This document shows, piece by piece, positions 5,253-60,371 of a stretch of 60,371 nucleotides of DNA (position 1 is the stretch's first letter; each line of letters starts with the position of its first letter). The notes under the pieces were generated by a model. It was not told the origin of the DNA and made no database searches. It was given only the letters and a program-made list of their open reading frames with translations. Source of the stretch: a virus (taxonomy: Duplodnaviria > Caudoviricetes). Both the position numbers and the translations under genes were made by a program. Location of the stretch: positions 1-60,371 of the IMG/VR virus record IMGVR_UViG_3300021086_000002, one strand, 5' to 3'.

Positions 5253-5293
5253 GTTGTATGAGATCACCCTACACAACTTGACGAAGATGTCAA
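5253..5293 (-). promoter_or_regulatory. Promoter with palindromic operator (copy 2)
   Basis: TTGACA-N16-TAGGGT then GATCTCATACAAC; TTGAC-N6-GTCAA at 5278-5293. Confidence 0.7.
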
Positions 5294-26206: not shown

Positions 26207-26414
26207 TTTTCACCCAGTTTCTGGTCGCGGATCCATCGACGAACGGCGCGCTTCGTGGCGTTGTTGGCCAGAGGGTCGTAGTCGTGGGTCAGTTTTTCGA
26301 GTATGTGGAGCAGCGCGAGCTGGGCTGCTCCACATACTCGATGTCCAGCATGGCGAAGTCGAGGTCTTCGTAGATCTCCTCCTCCGGTTCCGGGGACTTG
26401 TCGGAGACACTCAC
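26203..26414 (-). pseudogene. Frameshifted VRRWxxDQ-family gene
   Basis: The N-half (IYEDLD) and C-half (LHILEKL...VRRWIRDQ) are in different frames; the shift falls within an 18-bp perfect inverted repeat (26297-26341). Confidence 0.55.
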
Positions 26415-26719
26415 TCAAACCACGTTTCCCCGGTAACGGCATCTCGGTATTGCGTTCGTTTCGGCGTGCTGGGCAAGCCGCTAGGTATGCCACGGTCCAG
26501 GGGCCGACCGCTAGGTATGCCACGGTCCAGGGGCCGGGCCTGGTCACGCAGCCAACGGCGAACGGTCTGTCGTGCGAATCCCGAGTCGTCGGTAAACGGC
26601 GTGTCACTCAGCGCCTCAAGCACGCGGATAAACACGGATGTGTCTGCGACCATGACTGATCCGACGATCTCGGCCAGTGTGTCGAGGTCTTCGTACAGGT
26701 CGCTCTGCTTCTGGTCCAT
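26411..26719 (-). CDS. Hypothetical protein, VRRWxxDQ family
   Basis: LYEDLD...IRVLEAL...VRRWLRDQ; contains a 30-bp tandem duplication. Confidence 0.6.
   Translation of the reverse strand: MDQKQSDLYEDLDTLAEIVGSVMVADTSVFIRVLEALSDTPFTDDSGFARQTVRRWLRDQARPLDRGIPSGRPLDRGIPSGLPSTPKRTQYRDAVTGETWFE
26478..26536. repeat. 30-bp tandem duplication
   Basis: CCGCTAGGTATGCCACGGTCCAGGGGCCG occurs twice (RPLDRGIPSG x2). Confidence 0.9.
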
Positions 26720-26943
26720 CACAGCACGATCCTTTCCTCGATCGCGTAGTTGACGCCCATGCCGTTGACGTGCAACTGGCTGTCGGTCCATTCGTAGAAG
26801 AACCTGTCGTCACCATCAGCGATGTGCCGTTCGTACTTGTACCGTTCGACGGCGCTCCGCTGAGCGTGCTCCTTCGTTCCGAAGATCAGGTCATGCAGGC
26901 CAACCTTATCGTTCCAGCGGAGCTGGAAGACGATCTTACTCAT
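26719..26943 (-). CDS. Hypothetical protein
   Basis: MSKIVFQ start; RBS GGGGAG; coupled ORF. Confidence 0.55.
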   Translation of the reverse strand: MSKIVFQLRWNDKVGLHDLIFGTKEHAQRSAVERYKYERHIADGDDRFFYEWTDSQLHVNGMGVNYAIEERIVL

Positions 26944-27200
26944 CGGTCTTCTCCCCCTTCCAGCCTGTCCAGCGCTCGCGCCAGTACCGGCATCGCGTTC
27001 CGAACGGTCTCCTGGGCCAGCAGGTGCCACACCGGGCGAACCCCGTAGTGCGTCCAGGCCCGGCGTGCCGCCTCGGCCGCCGGGAGGTGGTCGTACTGGT
27101 GCGGGCCCTCCATCGTGACTGGAGTGCGGATCTCGTGGAAAGTGCACCGTGGCTCCGGCAATGCTGGCGCCACGGTGCGTGAACGACGACGGAAGATCAC
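26940..27200 (-). CDS. Hypothetical protein
   Basis: GTGA-coupled; AARRAW...MPVLARALDRL. Confidence 0.55.
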   Translation of the reverse strand: MIFRRRSRTVAPALPEPRCTFHEIRTPVTMEGPHQYDHLPAAEAARRAWTHYGVRPVWHLLAQETVRNAMPVLARALDRLEGGEDR

Positions 27201-33677: not shown

Positions 33678-33774
33678 GTGATCCTCCGTGTCATGTTATC
33701 CTTGACATGTACCTCCCCATCATACAATCATGGAGCGGAGCGGTGGGCAAGAACCTCATACCCCGGGAGGCATC

Positions 33775-34185
33775 ATGCGACTCGACCTGGCAAAAGACAT
33801 CGTGCGCGCCCGCTGCTTCGGCCGCTGCGAGGGCTGCGGTACCTACGGCGACGTAGAGGTGCATCACCGCAAGGCCCGAGGGATGGGTGGCGTATCGCGG
33901 CGAGAGGCCGAGAGCGCCAACGATCCGCGCAACCTGCTGGCCCTGTGCCGGCAGTGTCACGCGGCGACGGAGCACGCCGACACCTGGCGTGAATGCGAGA
34001 CGAAGGGCTGGCGCGTCGAGCACGGCCAGCGGACCCCCTTCGAAGTGCCGTGCCTGATCTACACCGTCCAGGGATTCGGATGGTGGGAGCTGGACGAACA
34101 CGGCGGCTATCACTGGCTCGACCTGTCGCCAACCTGGCGGCTGACCTGGCAAGAGGGAGAGGGAAATGGGAGCACGACTGAGTGA
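33775..34185 (+). CDS. HNH endonuclease
   Basis: CEGC...HHRKARGMGG...NLLALCRQCH. Confidence 0.8.
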   Translation: MRLDLAKDIVRARCFGRCEGCGTYGDVEVHHRKARGMGGVSRREAESANDPRNLLALCRQCHAATEHADTWRECETKGWRVEHGQRTPFEVPCLIYTVQGFGWWELDEHGGYHWLDLSPTWRLTWQEGEGNGSTTE

Positions 34186-37178: not shown

Positions 37179-37508
37179 ATGACTGTGCAGTACGACATCG
37201 AGAGTGCCCAGGTAAACCTCAAGATCACATTCCGGGTCAAGCTGGCCGGCATGGAGCCGCGCGAAAAGTACGGCCGTACCAGGTACCAGCCGAACCTGCT
37301 TACCGTGGTGATCCAGGACGGCGAGCTGGGATACCCCACCATGAGTGGTCCACGGATGGTCAAGTCGGGTCCGCACGGCAGTGACATCCAGGAGGTGCTC
37401 TACCTCCACGATATTGAGGGGCCGCTCGCGGGAGAGCCCTGGTTCATGCTCCTCCGCGAGCACCTGTACCAGCGGTACAACGCGGTAGCGCGCGGGTGGT
37501 CGGTGTAG
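37179..37508 (+). CDS. Hypothetical protein (paralog A)
   Basis: PREKYGR..Y.P...SGPRMVKSG. Confidence 0.65.
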   Translation: MTVQYDIESAQVNLKITFRVKLAGMEPREKYGRTRYQPNLLTVVIQDGELGYPTMSGPRMVKSGPHGSDIQEVLYLHDIEGPLAGEPWFMLLREHLYQRYNAVARGWSV

Positions 37509-37513
37509 TGATC

Positions 37514-37828
37514 ATGAAGCACAAGATCGAAAGCAAGCTGAACGTGATCGTCCAGTTCGAAGTCCTGCTGACGGGCATCCCGCCACGGGCCAGGTACGGC
37601 CGTATCTTGTACCTGCCCACGACGCTCGCGGTCCAGTTCAGCCACGGCACGCTGATTTCGCCTCTCGTGAGCGGCCCCCGGATCCTCAAGTCCGGAGCGC
37701 AGGGGGCTTGGGTCTCAGAGGAGTTCTTCATCTACGGCCGGCCCGACTGGCTGGAGGAGCTGATGGAGGAGCTGGATCACCGGGCTGCTCTCCAGACGTA
37801 CCGGATCACAGGTTGGATAGGGCAGTGA
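37514..37828 (+). CDS. Hypothetical protein (paralog B)
   Basis: PRARYGR..Y.P...SGPRILKSG. Confidence 0.65.
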   Translation: MKHKIESKLNVIVQFEVLLTGIPPRARYGRILYLPTTLAVQFSHGTLISPLVSGPRILKSGAQGAWVSEEFFIYGRPDWLEELMEELDHRAALQTYRITGWIGQ

Positions 37829-38181
37829 CCGGCCAGGTGGCACCGCTGCCCGGGGAGCAACCCTGGGTCCCATCGCCGGTCGACGCCGACTTGCGGTGGC
37901 CACGCCGGCAGATCTTCGGCGGCGTGGCCACCTGGACCCCGCACCGGGGCGTTCACCGACCCTGTGACATCTGCATCGAGGTTGTGCACGAGCAGGGCAT
38001 CGCGGCGGCCCCTCGGCCAGCGCCGGCCACCATGAAACGGGTCGGCCCGCAGGGACCGAAGCTGCCCACCTTCTGGTGCTACCGGCACGGCAGCACGATG
38101 AAGAGTAAGGACCAGGAGATCCGGCGCCGCGTAGAGGCCATGCGTGCCACGGTGGAGCACCAGAGCGCGCGCCGCAGATAG
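37825..38181 (+). CDS. Hypothetical protein (CxxC...CxxH)
   Basis: GTGA-coupled ORF. Confidence 0.55.
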   Translation: MTGQVAPLPGEQPWVPSPVDADLRWPRRQIFGGVATWTPHRGVHRPCDICIEVVHEQGIAAAPRPAPATMKRVGPQGPKLPTFWCYRHGSTMKSKDQEIRRRVEAMRATVEHQSARRR

Positions 38182-38215
38182 CCTCATCTGGAACGCGACA
38201 TCTCGGGTCAACGAG

Positions 38216-38244
38216 TTGCGATCAAGACATCGGGACGGTAGGGT
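38216..38244 (+). promoter_or_regulatory. Promoter of the large ncRNA
   Basis: TTGCGA-N17-TAGGGT, with the same -10 as the promoters at 4589 and 5266. Confidence 0.65.
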
Positions 38245-38250
38245 AACAAC

Positions 38251-38897
38251 CAGCTCGCAAGGAACGGCGAGTCAGGGCGCATCCGAGCTGCTGAAGTTCG
38301 GCGGTACCAGACACACCACGGCTCCAGGTGGTCGTGCCCGAAAGGAGCAGGCGGTACGCCGACCGGCACGCAGCGCTAAGCGCAGCACACCCGGAAGGCG
38401 AGCTGCCGACCACCAGCCGGCGCTACGCGAGCGCTGGGGCCGAGGTTGGAGCCGGGGTGAAAGCCCAGTCCCCGGGGAGCGCGGAGCGCAGCCTGGTTTA
38501 CCAGGCGGGGGGCGCTGAGGGTCGAACCTCACCCGCGCACGGGAGCGAGAGGGTTTCACGTACTGGACGCTCGTCCACTGCTTGCGAGGGCAGCCTGGAC
38601 ATCAACCTTGGAACGTGGCGAATGGTGCACGAGAAGCACTACCGGGAGTTTCTTCGTTGTCATGCCGGCGGCGGGCTCACCCGGAAGATCGAGGAGCGGC
38701 GGAGTGCAGCCACGGTGAAACTCCGGGCGGGACTCCTGAGGTGCAAGCCTCTGCCAGGTTCGAGCCCTGGCGTCGCACGGCTCGGGCGCCCTGCCGGGAG
38801 TGAAGCCCCGGTCCCGAGCTGTGTTCCACCCTGCCGGGGCCGGCGCAGTGCTGAGATCAAGGGCTTTCGAGCTGCGCGATCTCGGCTCCGGCAGGGC
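38251..38897 (+). ncRNA. Large ornate structured ncRNA (GOLLD/ROOL-class candidate) with tRNA-like subdomain
   Basis: Coding gap of about 750 bp; many nested stems, GNRA loops and T-loop-like hairpins (see findings). Confidence 0.7.
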
Positions 38898-38929
38898 TTC
38901 AGGAGAGGAGAGATTCAGGTGGAGCAGTC

Positions 38930-39298
38930 GTGACGGTCCGTCGGTTCAATGACAATTCGCTGGAGCTGGCGGTGGCGTTCGCGCGGCTGTGGTCGGTGAT
39001 TGGCAACTTCCTGGCGCTGCTCCTCCTCTTCGGCGGCATCTGGCACGCGGACCTGCGGTACGTCTGGTGCGCCATCCTCCTGTCGGTGGTGAATCTCGCC
39101 GTCGGTTGGTTCGGCTGGCTGAGGTGGGGCAACGCGGCCTGGCGTTCCGGGTCCTGGACGGACGCGGCCCTGGACGACAGCACGCTGACGTGCGGTGCGC
39201 GGTACGGGGCGGACCTGACGTGCACGCAGGGCGGCTCCGATCACTCCCCGCACTGGGACGAGGTTCACGACCCCGAGTCGCGGCGGTGTTGGTCATGA
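38930..39298 (+). CDS. Membrane protein
   Basis: Two TM segments plus a Cys/His tail. Confidence 0.55.
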   Translation: MTVRRFNDNSLELAVAFARLWSVIGNFLALLLLFGGIWHADLRYVWCAILLSVVNLAVGWFGWLRWGNAAWRSGSWTDAALDDSTLTCGARYGADLTCTQGGSDHSPHWDEVHDPESRRCWS

Positions 39299-47361: not shown

Positions 47362-47410
47362 TTGACGACGTTCGGGTAATCACGATACTATGTACAGGAC
47401 CACCTGACAA
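47362..47410 (+). promoter_or_regulatory. Promoter with GTACAGGACCACCTGACAA leader box
   Basis: TTGACG-N18-TACTAT; box is 18/19 identical to the one at 28353-28371. Confidence 0.75.
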
Positions 47411-55057: not shown

Positions 55058-55941
55058 CCCAGCCGCCACAGCAGCCGCCACCTCAGGGCGCTCCGGGGGG
55101 CGGCACCGCGCTGGCCGTGGCGGCGCTGGCCGCTGGTGCTCCGGATCCGTGGTTGCCACTGCGGTGGCGACACCTCGCGGCGGTGGTGCGGGCCGAGCGG
55201 GCGCTGCACACCGCGTACGCCGCCGTGCTGGGTAGCTGGCTGACCCGGGTGCGGTCTCGGGTGGTGCAGGGCAGCCGGGTGGACCCGAGCGCCCTGGCCG
55301 CGACGGTGCCAACGTTCTCCACAGGTGTGGACAACGTTGTGGATATCCAGGTTCGCGAGATCTTCGAGCGCGCTTTCGAGGCGGAGGCCGGCTTCGAGCC
55401 CAACGCTAACTTCCATGTAGAGCAGTACCTGACGACAGCGCGCAACCGTATGGCCAACACCCCCGACTCCGTCTACCACTTGATCCGCCAGAAGATCGCG
55501 GACGCGACCGCTCAGGGGATGCCCGTGGAAGAGTTGGCCCTGGCTGTCGACAAGGTGCTGGGCAACGAGGGCGTCGAGACCTGGGCCAACCGGGGCATGG
55601 TCGTTGCCCGTACCGAGACCATCGCCGCGTACAACGCGGGCACCTTCGCCGGCATGCAGTCGTTGGCCGGCCAGCTCGGCGGCGAGTGGGAGAAGGGCTG
55701 GCTGTCCACCCACGACAACAAGACCCGGCCTACTCACCAGGCGGCCGACATCGAGACCTCCGGTACCGGCCAGCGCGTGCCGCTCGGCGAGCCGTTCATC
55801 GTCGGCGGGTTCGCCGGCATGTACCCCGGCTCGCCCGAGCTGCCCCCGCAGGAGTGCGTTCAGTGTCGCTGCTCGCTGGTGCTGCTCCGGCCAGGGGAGA
55901 GGCCCAGCCTGGCTGATCGGCACATGAGGAAGTCGTCATGA
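55054..55941 (+). CDS. MuF-like minor head protein
   Basis: VARTET..AYN...KGWLSTHD.KTR.TH...PG.PELP..E..QCRC. Confidence 0.85.
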   Translation: MTQPPQQPPPQGAPGGGTALAVAALAAGAPDPWLPLRWRHLAAVVRAERALHTAYAAVLGSWLTRVRSRVVQGSRVDPSALAATVPTFSTGVDNVVDIQVREIFERAFEAEAGFEPNANFHVEQYLTTARNRMANTPDSVYHLIRQKIADATAQGMPVEELALAVDKVLGNEGVETWANRGMVVARTETIAAYNAGTFAGMQSLAGQLGGEWEKGWLSTHDNKTRPTHQAADIETSGTGQRVPLGEPFIVGGFAGMYPGSPELPPQECVQCRCSLVLLRPGERPSLADRHMRKSS

Positions 55942-57503
55942 CAGATCTCCAGGTGGATCTGTACGCGGCAGGCTGGTCCGCTCCGTCCAGCGCTGACCTC
56001 GATCCGTACGAGCCGGATCCACACGCCGGCTGCGCTGAGTTCTGCGTGGCCACTCACAAACCTGGCGTCTGCAAGGGCACGAAGCACGGTGGCCAGCAGG
56101 CCCAGACCGCCGTGGTCACTCCCCCAAAGCCCATCGCGCTACCCAAGACCGTGACGGTACCGAACGCGCCAACCGACCTGACTCCCCAGCAGGCCGCCGC
56201 CCAGCAGGCCCGGACCGTCAGCTACCAGCAGGCCCAGCTTCACGCTCAGCGGTTGGCCCAGCAGCTCGGCGGCTCCAACTGGAGGCAGGCTCACGGGGCA
56301 GTTCTGGACTACGGGCACGCCCTGCATCAGCATCAGCAGGCCCTCAACCACGCCGCCATGCTGAACAAGCAGGCTCACGCCGCGCATGACCGCGCGGTGG
56401 CCCAGAACGCCAATGCCCAGACGCGGTACGCGGCGGCCGTGGCTCGCCAGCGGGCCGCCGCCGCGACCAAGGCGACCAAGGCGACGGCCAGTACCCACCA
56501 GACCGCGAGACAGAAGCTGATGAACCAGCTCACCGCGCTCCAGCAGAAGGCCCATGCCGCCCAGAAGACGAAGCCCGTGGTGGCTAGCGGAGAGCCCGCG
56601 CTGTACGCGGTAGCGGCTGACATGGAGGCGCTGGCATATGGCCTCCTGGCCGGCGCGCATCTCTGGTGTGACATCGGTGCGTTCTGCCGCAATCCACTGC
56701 ACCCTGGACCCTGCAAGGGCTGGAAGCACACTCTGAAGCAGGTGGCTCCCGAACTGCACCGTCAGATGGAGGAGGCGCGGCAGAGCCGGCGCCCGGCACG
56801 TGTCGCGAAAGTTGAGCCGACTCCGGTTGTCCCCGTGGTCGAGGCGGTCAAGAAGGCGGCTCCCGTAAAGAGAGCACCACGAGTTGCACCAAGTCCCGAG
56901 AAGGCGAGACCGTCAGTCGCTCCCTGGAAGCCGCCGAAACCGATCAGTGCCGCACGTGCTACCGCGATGCAGAAAGAGATGCTTGGCGGGAAGACGTGGA
57001 CGCCTGACGAACTCGCCGCGCTGACGCGGTACTCATCGACGGACTTCGCTGACATCAATGGAGTTCTGCGCGGTAGCTTGCGCGTGGAGGACATTCCAGA
57101 AAAGGGGTTCGGCGGCGCAAGTGTGCAAGACACGATCCGCCATGCTGATGCCGCCATGCGTCCACTTCCCGAGGGAGTGCCGCTGTTGCGGCGGGTCGGG
57201 TTCGAGGCATTCGGGGTCGAGAACGCCGACGATCTGAGGGGATTGGTCGGACACACTCTCCAGGATCGCGGGTTCCTGTCCACGACGATCGTGCGCCGTG
57301 GACAGTTGGACAAGGCGGTGGCCGCTCAGCGTTCCGTGGTCATGGAGATCGACGCACCGGCCGGCACTCCGGCGGCCTACGTTGGGGACATCGCCATCTG
57401 GCGACAGCAAAAAGAGATGATCCTTGCTCCCGGTACCAAATACCAGGTGGTCGAGGTTGTCGACGGCGATGTGACCACCGTGCGAGTGAGGGTCGTGCCA
57501 TGA
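55938..57503 (+). CDS. Multidomain protein with C-terminal VIP2-like ADP-ribosyltransferase
   Basis: Y.....INGVLRG, LLRR, DRGFLSTT, QKEMIL..GT; internal FCRNPLHPGPC module. Confidence 0.8.
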   Translation: MTDLQVDLYAAGWSAPSSADLDPYEPDPHAGCAEFCVATHKPGVCKGTKHGGQQAQTAVVTPPKPIALPKTVTVPNAPTDLTPQQAAAQQARTVSYQQAQLHAQRLAQQLGGSNWRQAHGAVLDYGHALHQHQQALNHAAMLNKQAHAAHDRAVAQNANAQTRYAAAVARQRAAAATKATKATASTHQTARQKLMNQLTALQQKAHAAQKTKPVVASGEPALYAVAADMEALAYGLLAGAHLWCDIGAFCRNPLHPGPCKGWKHTLKQVAPELHRQMEEARQSRRPARVAKVEPTPVVPVVEAVKKAAPVKRAPRVAPSPEKARPSVAPWKPPKPISAARATAMQKEMLGGKTWTPDELAALTRYSSTDFADINGVLRGSLRVEDIPEKGFGGASVQDTIRHADAAMRPLPEGVPLLRRVGFEAFGVENADDLRGLVGHTLQDRGFLSTTIVRRGQLDKAVAAQRSVVMEIDAPAGTPAAYVGDIAIWRQQKEMILAPGTKYQVVEVVDGDVTTVRVRVVP

Positions 57504-59665: not shown

Positions 59666-59679
59666 GCGAAGGAGGATCC

Positions 59680-60371
59680 ATGTCGGATCAAGACACACCA
59701 TGCACCGACTGCCCCGACGACGACTTCGCCACGGTGACCGCGACCGACGAGGCCGAGCCGAACACCGCACCGGACCCACGGGGCACCAAGCTGACCCGTT
59801 GGCGCGGATTGCTGGCGCCCATCGGGAAGCCCACCGGCGACGGCCGGCGGTTCTCCACCACGCCGGGCGCACTGACCCACCGGGATCTCCCGCAGCCGGT
59901 GAAGTGGCAGCGGACCGATGCCCAGGGGCACGCCACCTCGGTGGTGGTGGGCACCATGGACCGGATCCGGATTGGCAACGGGGACCACGGACTGGGCGTG
60001 TATGCCGAGGGGACTCTGTTCGACCCGGACCCAGAGCAGCTTCCCCGGCTGGCCGAAGACGTGGCGGAGGCCAAGCTGCTTCTGAGCCAGCGGGTCATCG
60101 GGCCATCCGTCGATCTGGACGCGATGGAGTTTCACGCCATGCCTGGCCAGGAGGGCGAGCTGGCCCAGGAGGGTAAGCGGCCTGACATCGAGGTGGACAA
60201 GGGTCGGATCTCGGCCGCCACCTTGGTGCCGATCCCCGCGTTCGCTGAGGCCCGCCCGTTTGAGCTGTACGAGGTGGACGCGGAGGAGTGGGCGGCCGAG
60301 CAGGCGCCCGCGCTGACGGCCAGCGTGCGCTCCGCCGGCTGGGCAGACGTGTCCGTGGCTGACCCCGATAC
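59680..60371 (+). CDS. Capsid maturation protease, N-terminal part (wraps to 1508)
   Basis: RBS AAGGAGG, ATG 59680; WRGLLAP.G.PTGDGR.F...GH..SVVVG...GPSVDLD...AATLV.IPAF.EA. Confidence 0.8.
   Translation, partial: MSDQDTPCTDCPDDDFATVTATDEAEPNTAPDPRGTKLTRWRGLLAPIGKPTGDGRRFSTTPGALTHRDLPQPVKWQRTDAQGHATSVVVGTMDRIRIGNGDHGLGVYAEGTLFDPDPEQLPRLAEDVAEAKLLLSQRVIGPSVDLDAMEFHAMPGQEGELAQEGKRPDIEVDKGRISAATLVPIPAFAEARPFELYEVDAEEWAAEQAPALTASVRSAGWADVSVADPD
60251..60371. repeat. Terminal direct repeat, copy 2
   Basis: Identical to 1-121. Confidence 0.95.

Follow-up and report, generated by a model that had tools for sequence, protein, structure and literature searches.

A candidate non-coding RNA locus with diverged tRNA-like modules in a small clade of uncultured phages

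What is encoded in the gene-free gap at positions 38182-38929 of IMG/VR virus record IMGVR_UViG_3300021086_000002, between the stop codon at 38181 and the GTG start codon at 38930? The record, which was analyzed in full and is referred to here as the window, is the complete genome of an uncultured soil phage, 60,371 bp long, 66.5% GC and bounded by direct terminal repeats, and an earlier note, made from its letters alone, had read this gap as an ornate structured RNA of ~650 nucleotides (nt). Our results lead us, with moderate confidence and on comparative sequence evidence, to regard it as a non-coding RNA locus that is conserved in a small clade of ~60-kb phages, all uncultured and probably actinobacterial, and in which a 5' domain is combined with diverged transfer RNA (tRNA)-like modules. 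The gap does not code for protein and lies at a fixed position after a conserved 118-amino-acid (aa) Cys/His protein. A promoter-like site, collinear motifs and compensatory helices are kept across lineages whose proteins are ~30-60% identical, and the locus is composed of a 5' domain, two units of tRNA-like make-up (a tRNA T arm plus an acceptor-like stem), an insert specific to the lineage and a pair of strong hairpins.

Conservation of the gap among related phages

The gap had been called non-coding, and its composition bears this out. GC content by codon position is flat (0.53-0.85) in every frame across 38200-38880, compared with 0.82-0.97 at the third position of the flanking genes, and the codon log-odds of all open reading frames (ORFs) in the gap are negative (-0.16 to -0.64), as against +0.17 to +0.64 for nine neighboring genes. 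The best of them (-0.16) is 38328-38933, the frame whose conservation and translation the earlier note had named as telling against an RNA. A fast-evolving orphan protein gene in this frame would account for its 201 open codons and for the overlap of its TGA with the GTG of the next gene at 38930 (GTGA), an arrangement like that of translational coupling; its codon score also lies slightly above that of other frames at 38350-38650 (-0.13 to +0.16), and a gene caller reported it on one other contig. We nevertheless consider such a gene very improbable: its GC1/GC2/GC3 of 0.70/0.63/0.72 is flat, the only match of its 201-aa product among 5.8 billion proteins is a 199-aa copy of itself, the product belongs to no Pfam or PHROG family, and the frame would run through both of the long hairpins described below. 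Comparison of five gap ORFs with the gaps of four relatives by tblastn gave no collinear match (best E 0.010), and with the protein search this excludes a conserved ORF.

A strain variant, represented by contigs of soil metagenome DNA runs (X3-X6) and compared over the covered stretches, is identical to the window over 631 nt of upstream genes and differs from it at ~22 sites in ~580 nt of the gap. Three differences fall in 38250-38411; most lie in the window-specific expansion described below (11 in 38501-38715, beyond which indels are frequent), and the variant differs again at ~38815-38897, including a 1-nt indel, with a further indel of ~7 nt. Ten differences lie inside the frame of 38328-38933, three synonymous and seven non-synonymous, and because of these and of indels that are not multiples of three, coding by this frame is rejected. 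The divergence of a co-occurring strain (37500-38900, X3-X5) rises through the RNA locus from ~1% to 5% and then to ~10% with indels, which looks like a mosaic joint inside the locus. The claim that this is the largest coding gap of the genome was not established, since a crude gene call based on third-position GC leaves other gaps of 1178, 782, 745 and 706 nt, at least two of which hold plausible lower-GC ORFs. Two stretches of ~700-780 nt each, 26415-27196 and 59666-60371, contain no ORF with a gene-like GC pattern.

In distant-mode blastn, gap DNA had no match among 50,697 phage records, and a 24-mer from the gap had none among viral contigs. Neither the DUF932 protein encoded upstream nor the 122-aa protein encoded downstream matched any viral contig, protein P0001 had no match among cultured phages, and among metagenome contigs the DUF932 protein had a single match at 50% identity, on a contig that ends inside the gene; the DUF932 neighborhoods of phages Sonali and NTR1 held no comparable gap. 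Relatives were recovered through the portal protein, with which a search identified one 60-kb virus record (G001, 58% identity) and a two-sequence portal alignment identified four more (G002 to G005), and an RNA-motif search added a fragment (L049) that is 99.9% identical to G004. These six records represent three lineages besides that of the window: G001; G002; and G003, G004, G005 and L049. The gene order DUF932, 118-aa protein, gap, 122-aa protein, helix-turn-helix protein is kept in G001, G002, G004 and G005, at protein identities of 30-57%. The G003 record breaks inside the 118-aa gene, with the same order downstream of the break and DUF932 beyond the record. Every record has a gene-free gap of ~670-1132 nt right after the 118-aa gene.

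Within this gap, a series of motifs is collinear between the window and its relatives. It opens with a hairpin just past the predicted transcript start, whose stem sequence differs in each lineage, and continues with the conserved CGACCACC, which is single-stranded and lies at 38407-38414 in the window, and with a hairpin of the form GGAG-stem-UGA...AGU-stem-GG. The stem of this hairpin reads CCGGGG/CCCCGG in the window, as against GCCAGG/CCUGGC in G002 and G004, with both partners altered in three of the six pairs. There follow the first T arm and then GCACNGGA, the motif GTAC..CTGGAC(C)GC, the second T arm and a hairpin starting ACGGCUC, and the series ends in the apical sequence AUCAAGGGCUUUCG, found in the window and G004. 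Insertions of 120-240 nt interrupt the series between landmarks, at points that differ from lineage to lineage. The features of the window locus and its flanks, all on the + strand, are as follows.

38216-38244 (+): promoter-like site, TTGCGA (38216-38221), 17 nt, TAGGGT (38239-38244), predicted start near 38251
38251-38478 (+): 5' structured domain, RNAalifold consensus with compensatory changes
38254-38258 / 38267-38271 (+): hairpin of the 5' domain, consensus
38275-38280 / 38334-38339 (+): closing helix of the 5' domain, consensus
38413-38423 / 38431-38449 (+): helices of the 5' domain, consensus
38452-38457 / 38470-38475 (+): hairpin CCGGGG/CCCCGG of the 5' domain, loop UGA...AGU, consensus
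38479-38540 (+): tRNA-like unit 1, 62 nt, without a D arm, from the minimum free energy (MFE) fold of the piece
38479-38484 / 38533-38538 (+): acceptor-like stem GCGCGG/CCGCGC of unit 1, MFE
38491-38506 (+): long arm of unit 1 with hairpin GCCUGG-UUUA-CCAGGC, MFE
38517-38532 (+): T-arm-like TGAGG-GTCGAA-CCTCA of unit 1 (T arm 1), then GCACGGGA, MFE
38545-38735 (+): window-specific expansion, no detectable counterpart in the relatives
38578-38593 (+): hairpin CTGCTT-GCGA-GGGCAG in the expansion, readable in the sequence
38738-38751 (+): GNRA hairpin GAGGU-GCAA-GCCUC, fold z -2.08 for the piece with T arm 2
38753-38771 (+): T arm 2, GCCAGG-UUCGAGC-CCUGGC, with the 7-nt UUCRANY loop of a tRNA T arm
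38775-38824 and 38829-38896 (+): two tandem long hairpins (hairpins 1 and 2)
37825-38181 (+): upstream gene, 118-aa protein with conserved Cys/His (C47, C50, C85, H88), directly before the RNA locus in all records
38930-39298 (+): downstream gene, 122-aa predicted membrane protein, with a homolog also downstream of the RNA locus in the relatives

The putative promoter had been proposed in the earlier note, and it is credible because its layout recurs in the same position in every relative. TTGNNA-N17/18-TANNNT opens the gap in every lineage, ~35 nt past the 118-aa stop and nearer to it in G001, and takes the forms TTGCGA-17-TAGGGT (window), TTGTAA-17-TATACT (G002), TTGTAA-17-TACCGT (G004 and G005), TTGCAA-17-TACCGT (G003) and TTGCGA-18-TAGGCT (G001). 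These fit a SigA/sigma-70-type layout, with a -35 element TTGNNN, a spacer of 16-18 nt, a -10 element TANNNT and a conserved position. A scan requiring at least 4/6 matches in the -35 element, a spacer of 16-18 and TANNNT shows such sites to be rare, with 10 on the + strand, that at 38216-38244 among them, and eight on the - strand of the 60 kb; a strict TTGACA/TATAAT scan does not list the site at 38216-38244. The -10 element TAGGGT also occurs in TTGACA-N16/17-TAGGGT sites at 5293(-) and 4617(-). These two, with 5580(+), form a family of strong promoter-like sites in which TTGAC(A/G)-N16/17-TA(G/T)GGT is followed by (c/g)atctcatacA, and in another such family (47362(+), 28401(-), 35923(+)), TTGAC(A/G/T)-N18-TAnnnT is followed at 47362 and 28401 by a gtacaggaccacctgacaa-like sequence, of which 35923 retains only cctacctgaca. 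The conserved boxes downstream of both families suggest putative operator sites.

Covariation was assessed by RNAalifold on the first 300 nt of the locus in the window, G002, G004 and G003, amounting to three distinct sequences, with the poorly aligning G001 set aside. The consensus has 62 pairs, a covariation energy of -4.75 and 88% of cells paired. RNAalifold itself marks 24 pairs as altered in both partners; in the pair-by-pair count, double changes affect 25 pairs, as against 10.7 ± 2.4 in shuffles and 2-7 with slid partners, and 19 of the 25 (19 of all 62 pairs) are clean compensatory pairs, that is, paired in all three sequences. Helices 2, 8 and 10 are 100% paired, with two to three compensatory pairs each. 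Because the structure was derived from the same alignment, an adjacent protein gene of the same genomes was passed through the same pipeline as a coding control, which gave 84 pairs, 84.5% paired cells, a covariation energy of +3.12 and 16 double-changed pairs, clean in three cases (3 of 84 pairs). The covariation case rests on this contrast in clean compensatory pairs between gap and coding control. In the 3' part, where G002 aligns poorly, 15 of 44 pairs are double-changed, supporting T arm 2 and hairpin 1. 

The reverse-strand consensus is slightly worse (-59.65 versus -66.47 kcal/mol), and the rightward direction of the promoter-like site, the many G-U pairs of the consensus and the 3' hairpins, which are 16.5 kcal/mol weaker on the other strand, likewise indicate the + strand. 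Three strain variants fit the consensus fold: T38335C and T38887C turn G-U into G-C pairs, and A38531T restores a pair of T arm 1. An earlier scoring of the variants on the single-sequence MFE fold (five unpaired, five compatible, three disruptive) is superseded by the consensus. Together, these results support the earlier reading to the extent that a conserved, structured RNA-level element lies on the + strand of a phage whose proteins best match those of actinophages.

The tRNA-like units, the expansion and the 3' hairpins

The region consists largely of tRNA-like units, which the earlier note had missed, and a diverged tRNA-like array is therefore no less likely than a single giant, ornate RNA. 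ARAGORN, relaxed to an 80% threshold, calls units at 38470-38540 and 38699-38778 of the window and finds, in all genomes, a cloverleaf at every T arm. Unit 1 has a 4-nt loop at the anticodon-loop position; its homologs occur in the same order with closing stems ACGCGG/CCGCGU (G004) and AUGUGG/CCACAU (G002), and the homolog in G001 forms a complete cloverleaf whose loop is CU-GAA-GC. In G002 and G004, unit 2 shows the same four-armed layout in different sequences. Unit 3 of G004 and G005 is a true tRNA, scoring 45.3 bits on the Rfam tRNA model (gathering score 29; E 4e-7), and in G004 it is called as tRNA-Leu(CAG) with a 13-nt insert when ARAGORN allows introns.

T arm 2 is the only T-loop hairpin of the window with a stem of more than 4 bp, and this stem covaries with T arm 2 of G002, G003 and G004. 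Its 19-mer has 16 genome matches, four of which are real tRNA T arms and 12 unrelated places without extended similarity. A role of the T arm as an attP core was considered and rejected, as none of 185,579 species genomes contains an exact copy of the T arm with its following bases (a 24-mer) and the window encodes no protein of an integrase or resolvase family. In three Amycolatopsis genomes (L007, L015, L019), 11-14 tRNA genes are packed into ~1.1-2.5 kb, and the T arm of their tRNA-Gln(UUG) is identical to T arm 2. Two viral contigs of ~61 kb (L021, L022), which have no protein in common with the window phage, also carry the 19-mer: in L022 (10500-11300, -) it lies in a ~400-nt non-coding spacer between tRNA-Glu and tRNA-Thr, and in L021 (11900-12200, -) beside a tRNA-like unit (TCGGCGG/CCGCCGA; T arm CGGG-TTCGACT-CCCG) missed by ARAGORN. 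Such phages may commonly carry non-canonical tRNA-like units.

Between the two units, the landmarks GTAC..CTGGAC and T arm 2 are 190 nt apart in the window and 64-76 nt apart in G002 and G004, and the relatives carry expansions of their own at other places. Local folds of the window expansion have z scores of +1.15 and -0.17. No paralogous copy of the gap occurs elsewhere in the genome, and no iterons or long repeats were found.

The nested helices and folding energy from which an ornate ~650-nt fold had been proposed were only partly sustained. All nine helices listed in the earlier note can be read at their places, five of them as inverted repeats (I4-I8), but about half lie outside the conserved set. 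T arm 1 (TGAGG/CCTCA), part of GCCTGG/CCAGGC, the hairpin CACGGCTCGGG/CCCGAGCTGTG and the apex of the last hairpin recur in the relatives; helices 1-4 of the list do not, other pairings taking their place in the consensus, which has a local hairpin instead of the helix 38251/38398. The MFE of the whole region (-357.1 kcal/mol) has a z of -3.37 against 20 shuffles only, a weak control lending weak support, and against 84 other 714-nt segments of the genome the gap lies 1.1 standard deviations below the GC regression, with nine of the 84 folding better. Pieces within 38249-38732 have z scores of -1.76 to +1.15 (200 shuffles each). The fold as a whole is thus matched by the genome's own segments, and only the two 3' hairpins (38775-38896) are exceptional.

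These hairpins stand out singly (38774-38826, z -4.05; 38826-38900, z -3.96) and together, at -80.1 kcal/mol and z -4.96, with none of 200 shuffles as good, as compared with -63.6 kcal/mol and z -2.16 on the opposite strand. A hairpin of this pair ranks 13th among 6030 80-nt segments on the + strand. G003 and G004 retain hairpin 1, with a compensatory change at one of its pairs, and the apical sequence ATCAAGGGCTTTCG (38856-38869) of hairpin 2 is exactly common to the window and G004; the apical loop ATCAAGGGC is, like the single-stranded CGACCACC, a conserved element. Neither hairpin is followed by a U run (CUUCAGG follows), and a scan for intrinsic terminators lists no + strand site here. 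Strong hairpins are common at gene ends of this genome (e.g. 8291, 24451, 35311), and very strong local hairpins also occur at 26281, 52691, 2541 and 1741.

Flanking genes and genomic setting

The best matches of the window proteins are actinophage proteins, all of them distant. The DUF932 protein is at most 36% identical to proteins of Arthrobacter, Microbacterium and Gordonia phages, and the best cultured-phage match of the portal, at 33% identity, is that of Actinoplanes phage phiAsp2. A rightward block begins at ~33.7 kb with small early genes, leads to the terminase (49952) and portal (53141) and continues past the record ends into capsid and tail genes; the RNA locus lies ~4 kb into it. 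At the start of the block, 33730-34185 (+) has a weak HNH endonuclease match (PF01844, 21.4 bits) and a 62% identical homolog in G001. After the portal and a MuF-like head-morphogenesis gene, 55938-57503 (+) encodes a 521-aa protein with a C-terminal ADP-ribosyltransferase exoenzyme domain (PF03496, E 2.3e-16, residues 352-509), which looks like a putative phage MuF-associated toxin-type cargo.

The start of the 118-aa gene overlaps the stop of the preceding gene (GTGA), and its homologs, at 40-54% identity, lie immediately upstream of the gap in G001 to G005. Among 5.8 billion proteins, the 118-aa and 122-aa proteins match only themselves. The 118-aa protein belongs to no Pfam or PHROG family, its AF2 model (pLDDT 64.6) has no PDB fold match at E <= 0.001 in Foldseek, and its best score in the ESM Atlas (0.88) identifies no family. 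Between the DUF932 and 118-aa genes lie two adjacent paralogous small genes, 37179-37508 and 37496-37828 (+), both of phrog_3835, for which tblastn finds no match in the relatives. Downstream of the RNA locus, before the 122-aa homolog, G001 carries additional ORFs of 221 and 257 aa (L029, 6922-8425), G002 one of 283 aa (L044, 1986-2837) and G003 one of 168 aa (reverse strand of L047, 912-1418 of the reversed locus). Because these ORFs differ between relatives, the 3' border of the locus is a hot spot for gene insertion.

Known RNA families, alternative explanations and implications

The earlier note had placed the RNA in the GOLLD or ROOL class or in a new one, and membership of either named family is not borne out. 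Rfam 15 returns nothing at gathering score in the whole window. At E <= 10, neither 38000-39100 nor the G001 gap matches GOLLD, ROOL, transfer-messenger RNA (tmRNA), RNase P or an intron, and the G002 and G004 loci match none of them at E <= 1. As Rfam 15 holds no match, the locus is filed under no family, and it may correspond to a published motif outside Rfam 15. No tmRNA is called by default ARAGORN in the window or any relative and no tag reading frame is present, spurious permuted tmRNA calls appearing only in G002 at an 85% threshold. Group I and group II introns have no Rfam match either; the upstream gene ends at its own stop, and both flanking genes are separate genes in the relatives, with other ORFs between them. 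A literature search on tRNA-like RNAs of actinobacteriophages found nothing relevant.

In published descriptions, GOLLD is a large non-coding RNA that phages and prophages carry by tRNA genes, sometimes with tRNAs in a linker and with a variable 5' part, and ROOL is a large phage- and prophage-associated RNA (581 nt on average) near tRNAs, its function being given as unknown (PMC5737381; bioRxiv 10.1101/2024.12.08.627333). The present locus resembles GOLLD (RF01998), as so described, in its phage context by tRNA genes, with a true tRNA in the G004 locus, but its tRNA-like parts are much of the conserved core and not passengers, and since the GOLLD model has no match at E <= 10, the conserved 3' domain of GOLLD is absent here. 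Morgado and colleagues are said to have reported GOLLD in Mycobacterium tRNA arrays in 2020. The locus is like ROOL (RF03087), as so described, in being a large phage RNA near tRNAs and differs from it in lacking a match to the model. Phage tRNA islands offer a further parallel, with tandem units of T arm and acceptor stem behind one promoter in the early region and a true tRNA in G004 and G005; the window units, however, fail tRNA tests and are flanked by a structured domain of ~230 nt without tRNA likeness on the 5' side and by long hairpins on the 3' side. RNase P and RNase Z recognize the shape made when an acceptor stem stacks on a T arm and a working anticodon arm is lacking, and in this respect the units are comparable to the mascRNA at the 3' end of MALAT1 and to the tRNA-like domain of tmRNA. 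G001 has weak Rfam matches to mascRNA-menRNA (15.3 bits, E 6.8) and tRNA-Sec (19.3 bits, E 0.78), far below the gathering scores.

Several observations weigh against the reading of the gap as a conserved RNA locus with tRNA-like modules. No unit of the window passes default ARAGORN (0 genes) or the Rfam tRNA model RF00005 at E <= 10, and T arm 1, with its 6-nt loop, agrees only loosely with a canonical T arm. About 190 nt of the gap (38545-38735) have neither counterpart nor fold signal, and the combination of identical flanks with a variable gap in the strain variant is consistent either with a joint left by recombination or with window-specific parts that are weakly constrained. At one of the four paired variant sites the change is disruptive, T38297C breaking a pair in the weakest consensus helix. 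The main covariation count draws on only three distinct sequences and on a structure taken from the same alignment; G001 does not enter it, G002 lacks hairpin 1, and the coding control also beats all 500 shuffles and all slides, so that those tests alone prove little. The start, end and processing of the transcript are all predictions.

Among the alternatives, the one we weight most, though we think it unlikely, is that the locus works as a whole as one large RNA, a functional analog of GOLLD or ROOL. The 5' domain, the T-loop and GNRA hairpins and the 3' hairpins would then build one tertiary or multimeric architecture and enclose the tRNA-like parts, much as the GOLLD linker sometimes encloses tRNAs. 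A phage-borne RNA of 650-1100 nt with its own promoter and with a tRNA in the same locus of one relative would suit it, as would the conservation of single-stranded CGACCACC and of the apical loop ATCAAGGGC, and three GNRA-tetraloop hairpins occur in the gap (0.55 expected from + strand density; none on the other strand) alongside a T-loop hairpin. The GNRA count was, however, made post hoc (p about 0.02), neither family model matches even at E <= 10, most of the gap interior folds no better than shuffles, no conserved long-range helix closes the whole RNA, the pairing 38251/38398 having given way to a local hairpin, and each lineage bears its 120-240-nt insertions elsewhere. A second alternative, which we hold to be improbable, takes the units for drifting relics, without present function, of three ancestral tRNA genes behind a promoter. 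The gradient from the true tRNA of G004 unit 3 through the near-cloverleaves of G001 to the window units is what such a decaying island would leave, and the high strain-level variability with indels and the lineage-specific parts accord with it; yet at flanking-protein identities of 30-57%, free drift would have erased motifs, promoter and helices, pairing is kept through double changes at 19 of 62 pairs versus 3 of 84 in the coding control, and a gap of 0.67-1.1 kb is kept in the tightly packed genomes of all lineages.

A mainly cis-acting control region, consisting of a promoter and a long leader with tandem hairpins that would stop or attenuate transcription of the genes downstream, is given similarly little probability and ranks next in weight. 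CCCTGCCGGG occurs twice (38789, 38829), either copy being able to pair with CCGGCAGGG (38888), and the direct repeat D11 and inverted repeat I8 permit alternative pairings; the next start codon is 33 nt from the hairpins, which fold more stably on the + strand and have counterparts at other gene ends of the genome. Against this stand the absence of a U run and of a + strand site in the terminator scan, and the ORFs that separate the locus from the 122-aa homolog in G001, G002 and G003, together with the tRNA that follows the hairpins in G004, from which we conclude that the hairpins are not tied to the start of one gene. A control region would, moreover, leave the conserved 5' domain and the T arms unexplained. 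The orphan protein gene weighed above comes last.

Under the reading that we favor, transcription of the locus would run rightward from a SigA/sigma-70-type promoter of its own, begin near 38251 and yield a leader continuous with the downstream genes. The tRNA-like modules may be recognized by host RNase P and RNase Z and excised as stable small tRNA-like RNAs, which would also trim the transcript, and the two strong 3' hairpins would stabilize or delimit the RNA. Because the window units all fail tRNA tests and unit 1 has no D arm, the modules of the window would act not as tRNAs but as non-decoding RNA mimics or scaffolds, offering decoys or handles to factors of host or phage that bind tRNA. 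We further entertain, as a tentative possibility, that the locus defines a new class of large phage RNA, in which a structured 5' domain is fused to tRNA-derived modules that no longer decode yet retain the shape of T arm and acceptor, always behind a small Cys/His protein, and which would function as a decoy or sponge for tRNA-targeting defenses or tRNA-binding factors, or as a GOLLD- or ROOL-like assembly with tRNA-like handles.

With four lineages available, the locus offers a natural series in which one position ranges from a true tRNA, in a relative, to non-decoding units, in the window phage. The strict pairing of the RNA with a small Cys/His protein provides a testable partner. Large structured phage RNAs such as GOLLD and ROOL lie near tRNA genes for reasons that are not understood, and here tRNA-like shapes are themselves the conserved core; the series thus bears on the roles of tRNA-shaped RNAs beyond decoding and on the origin of large phage RNAs from tRNA islands.

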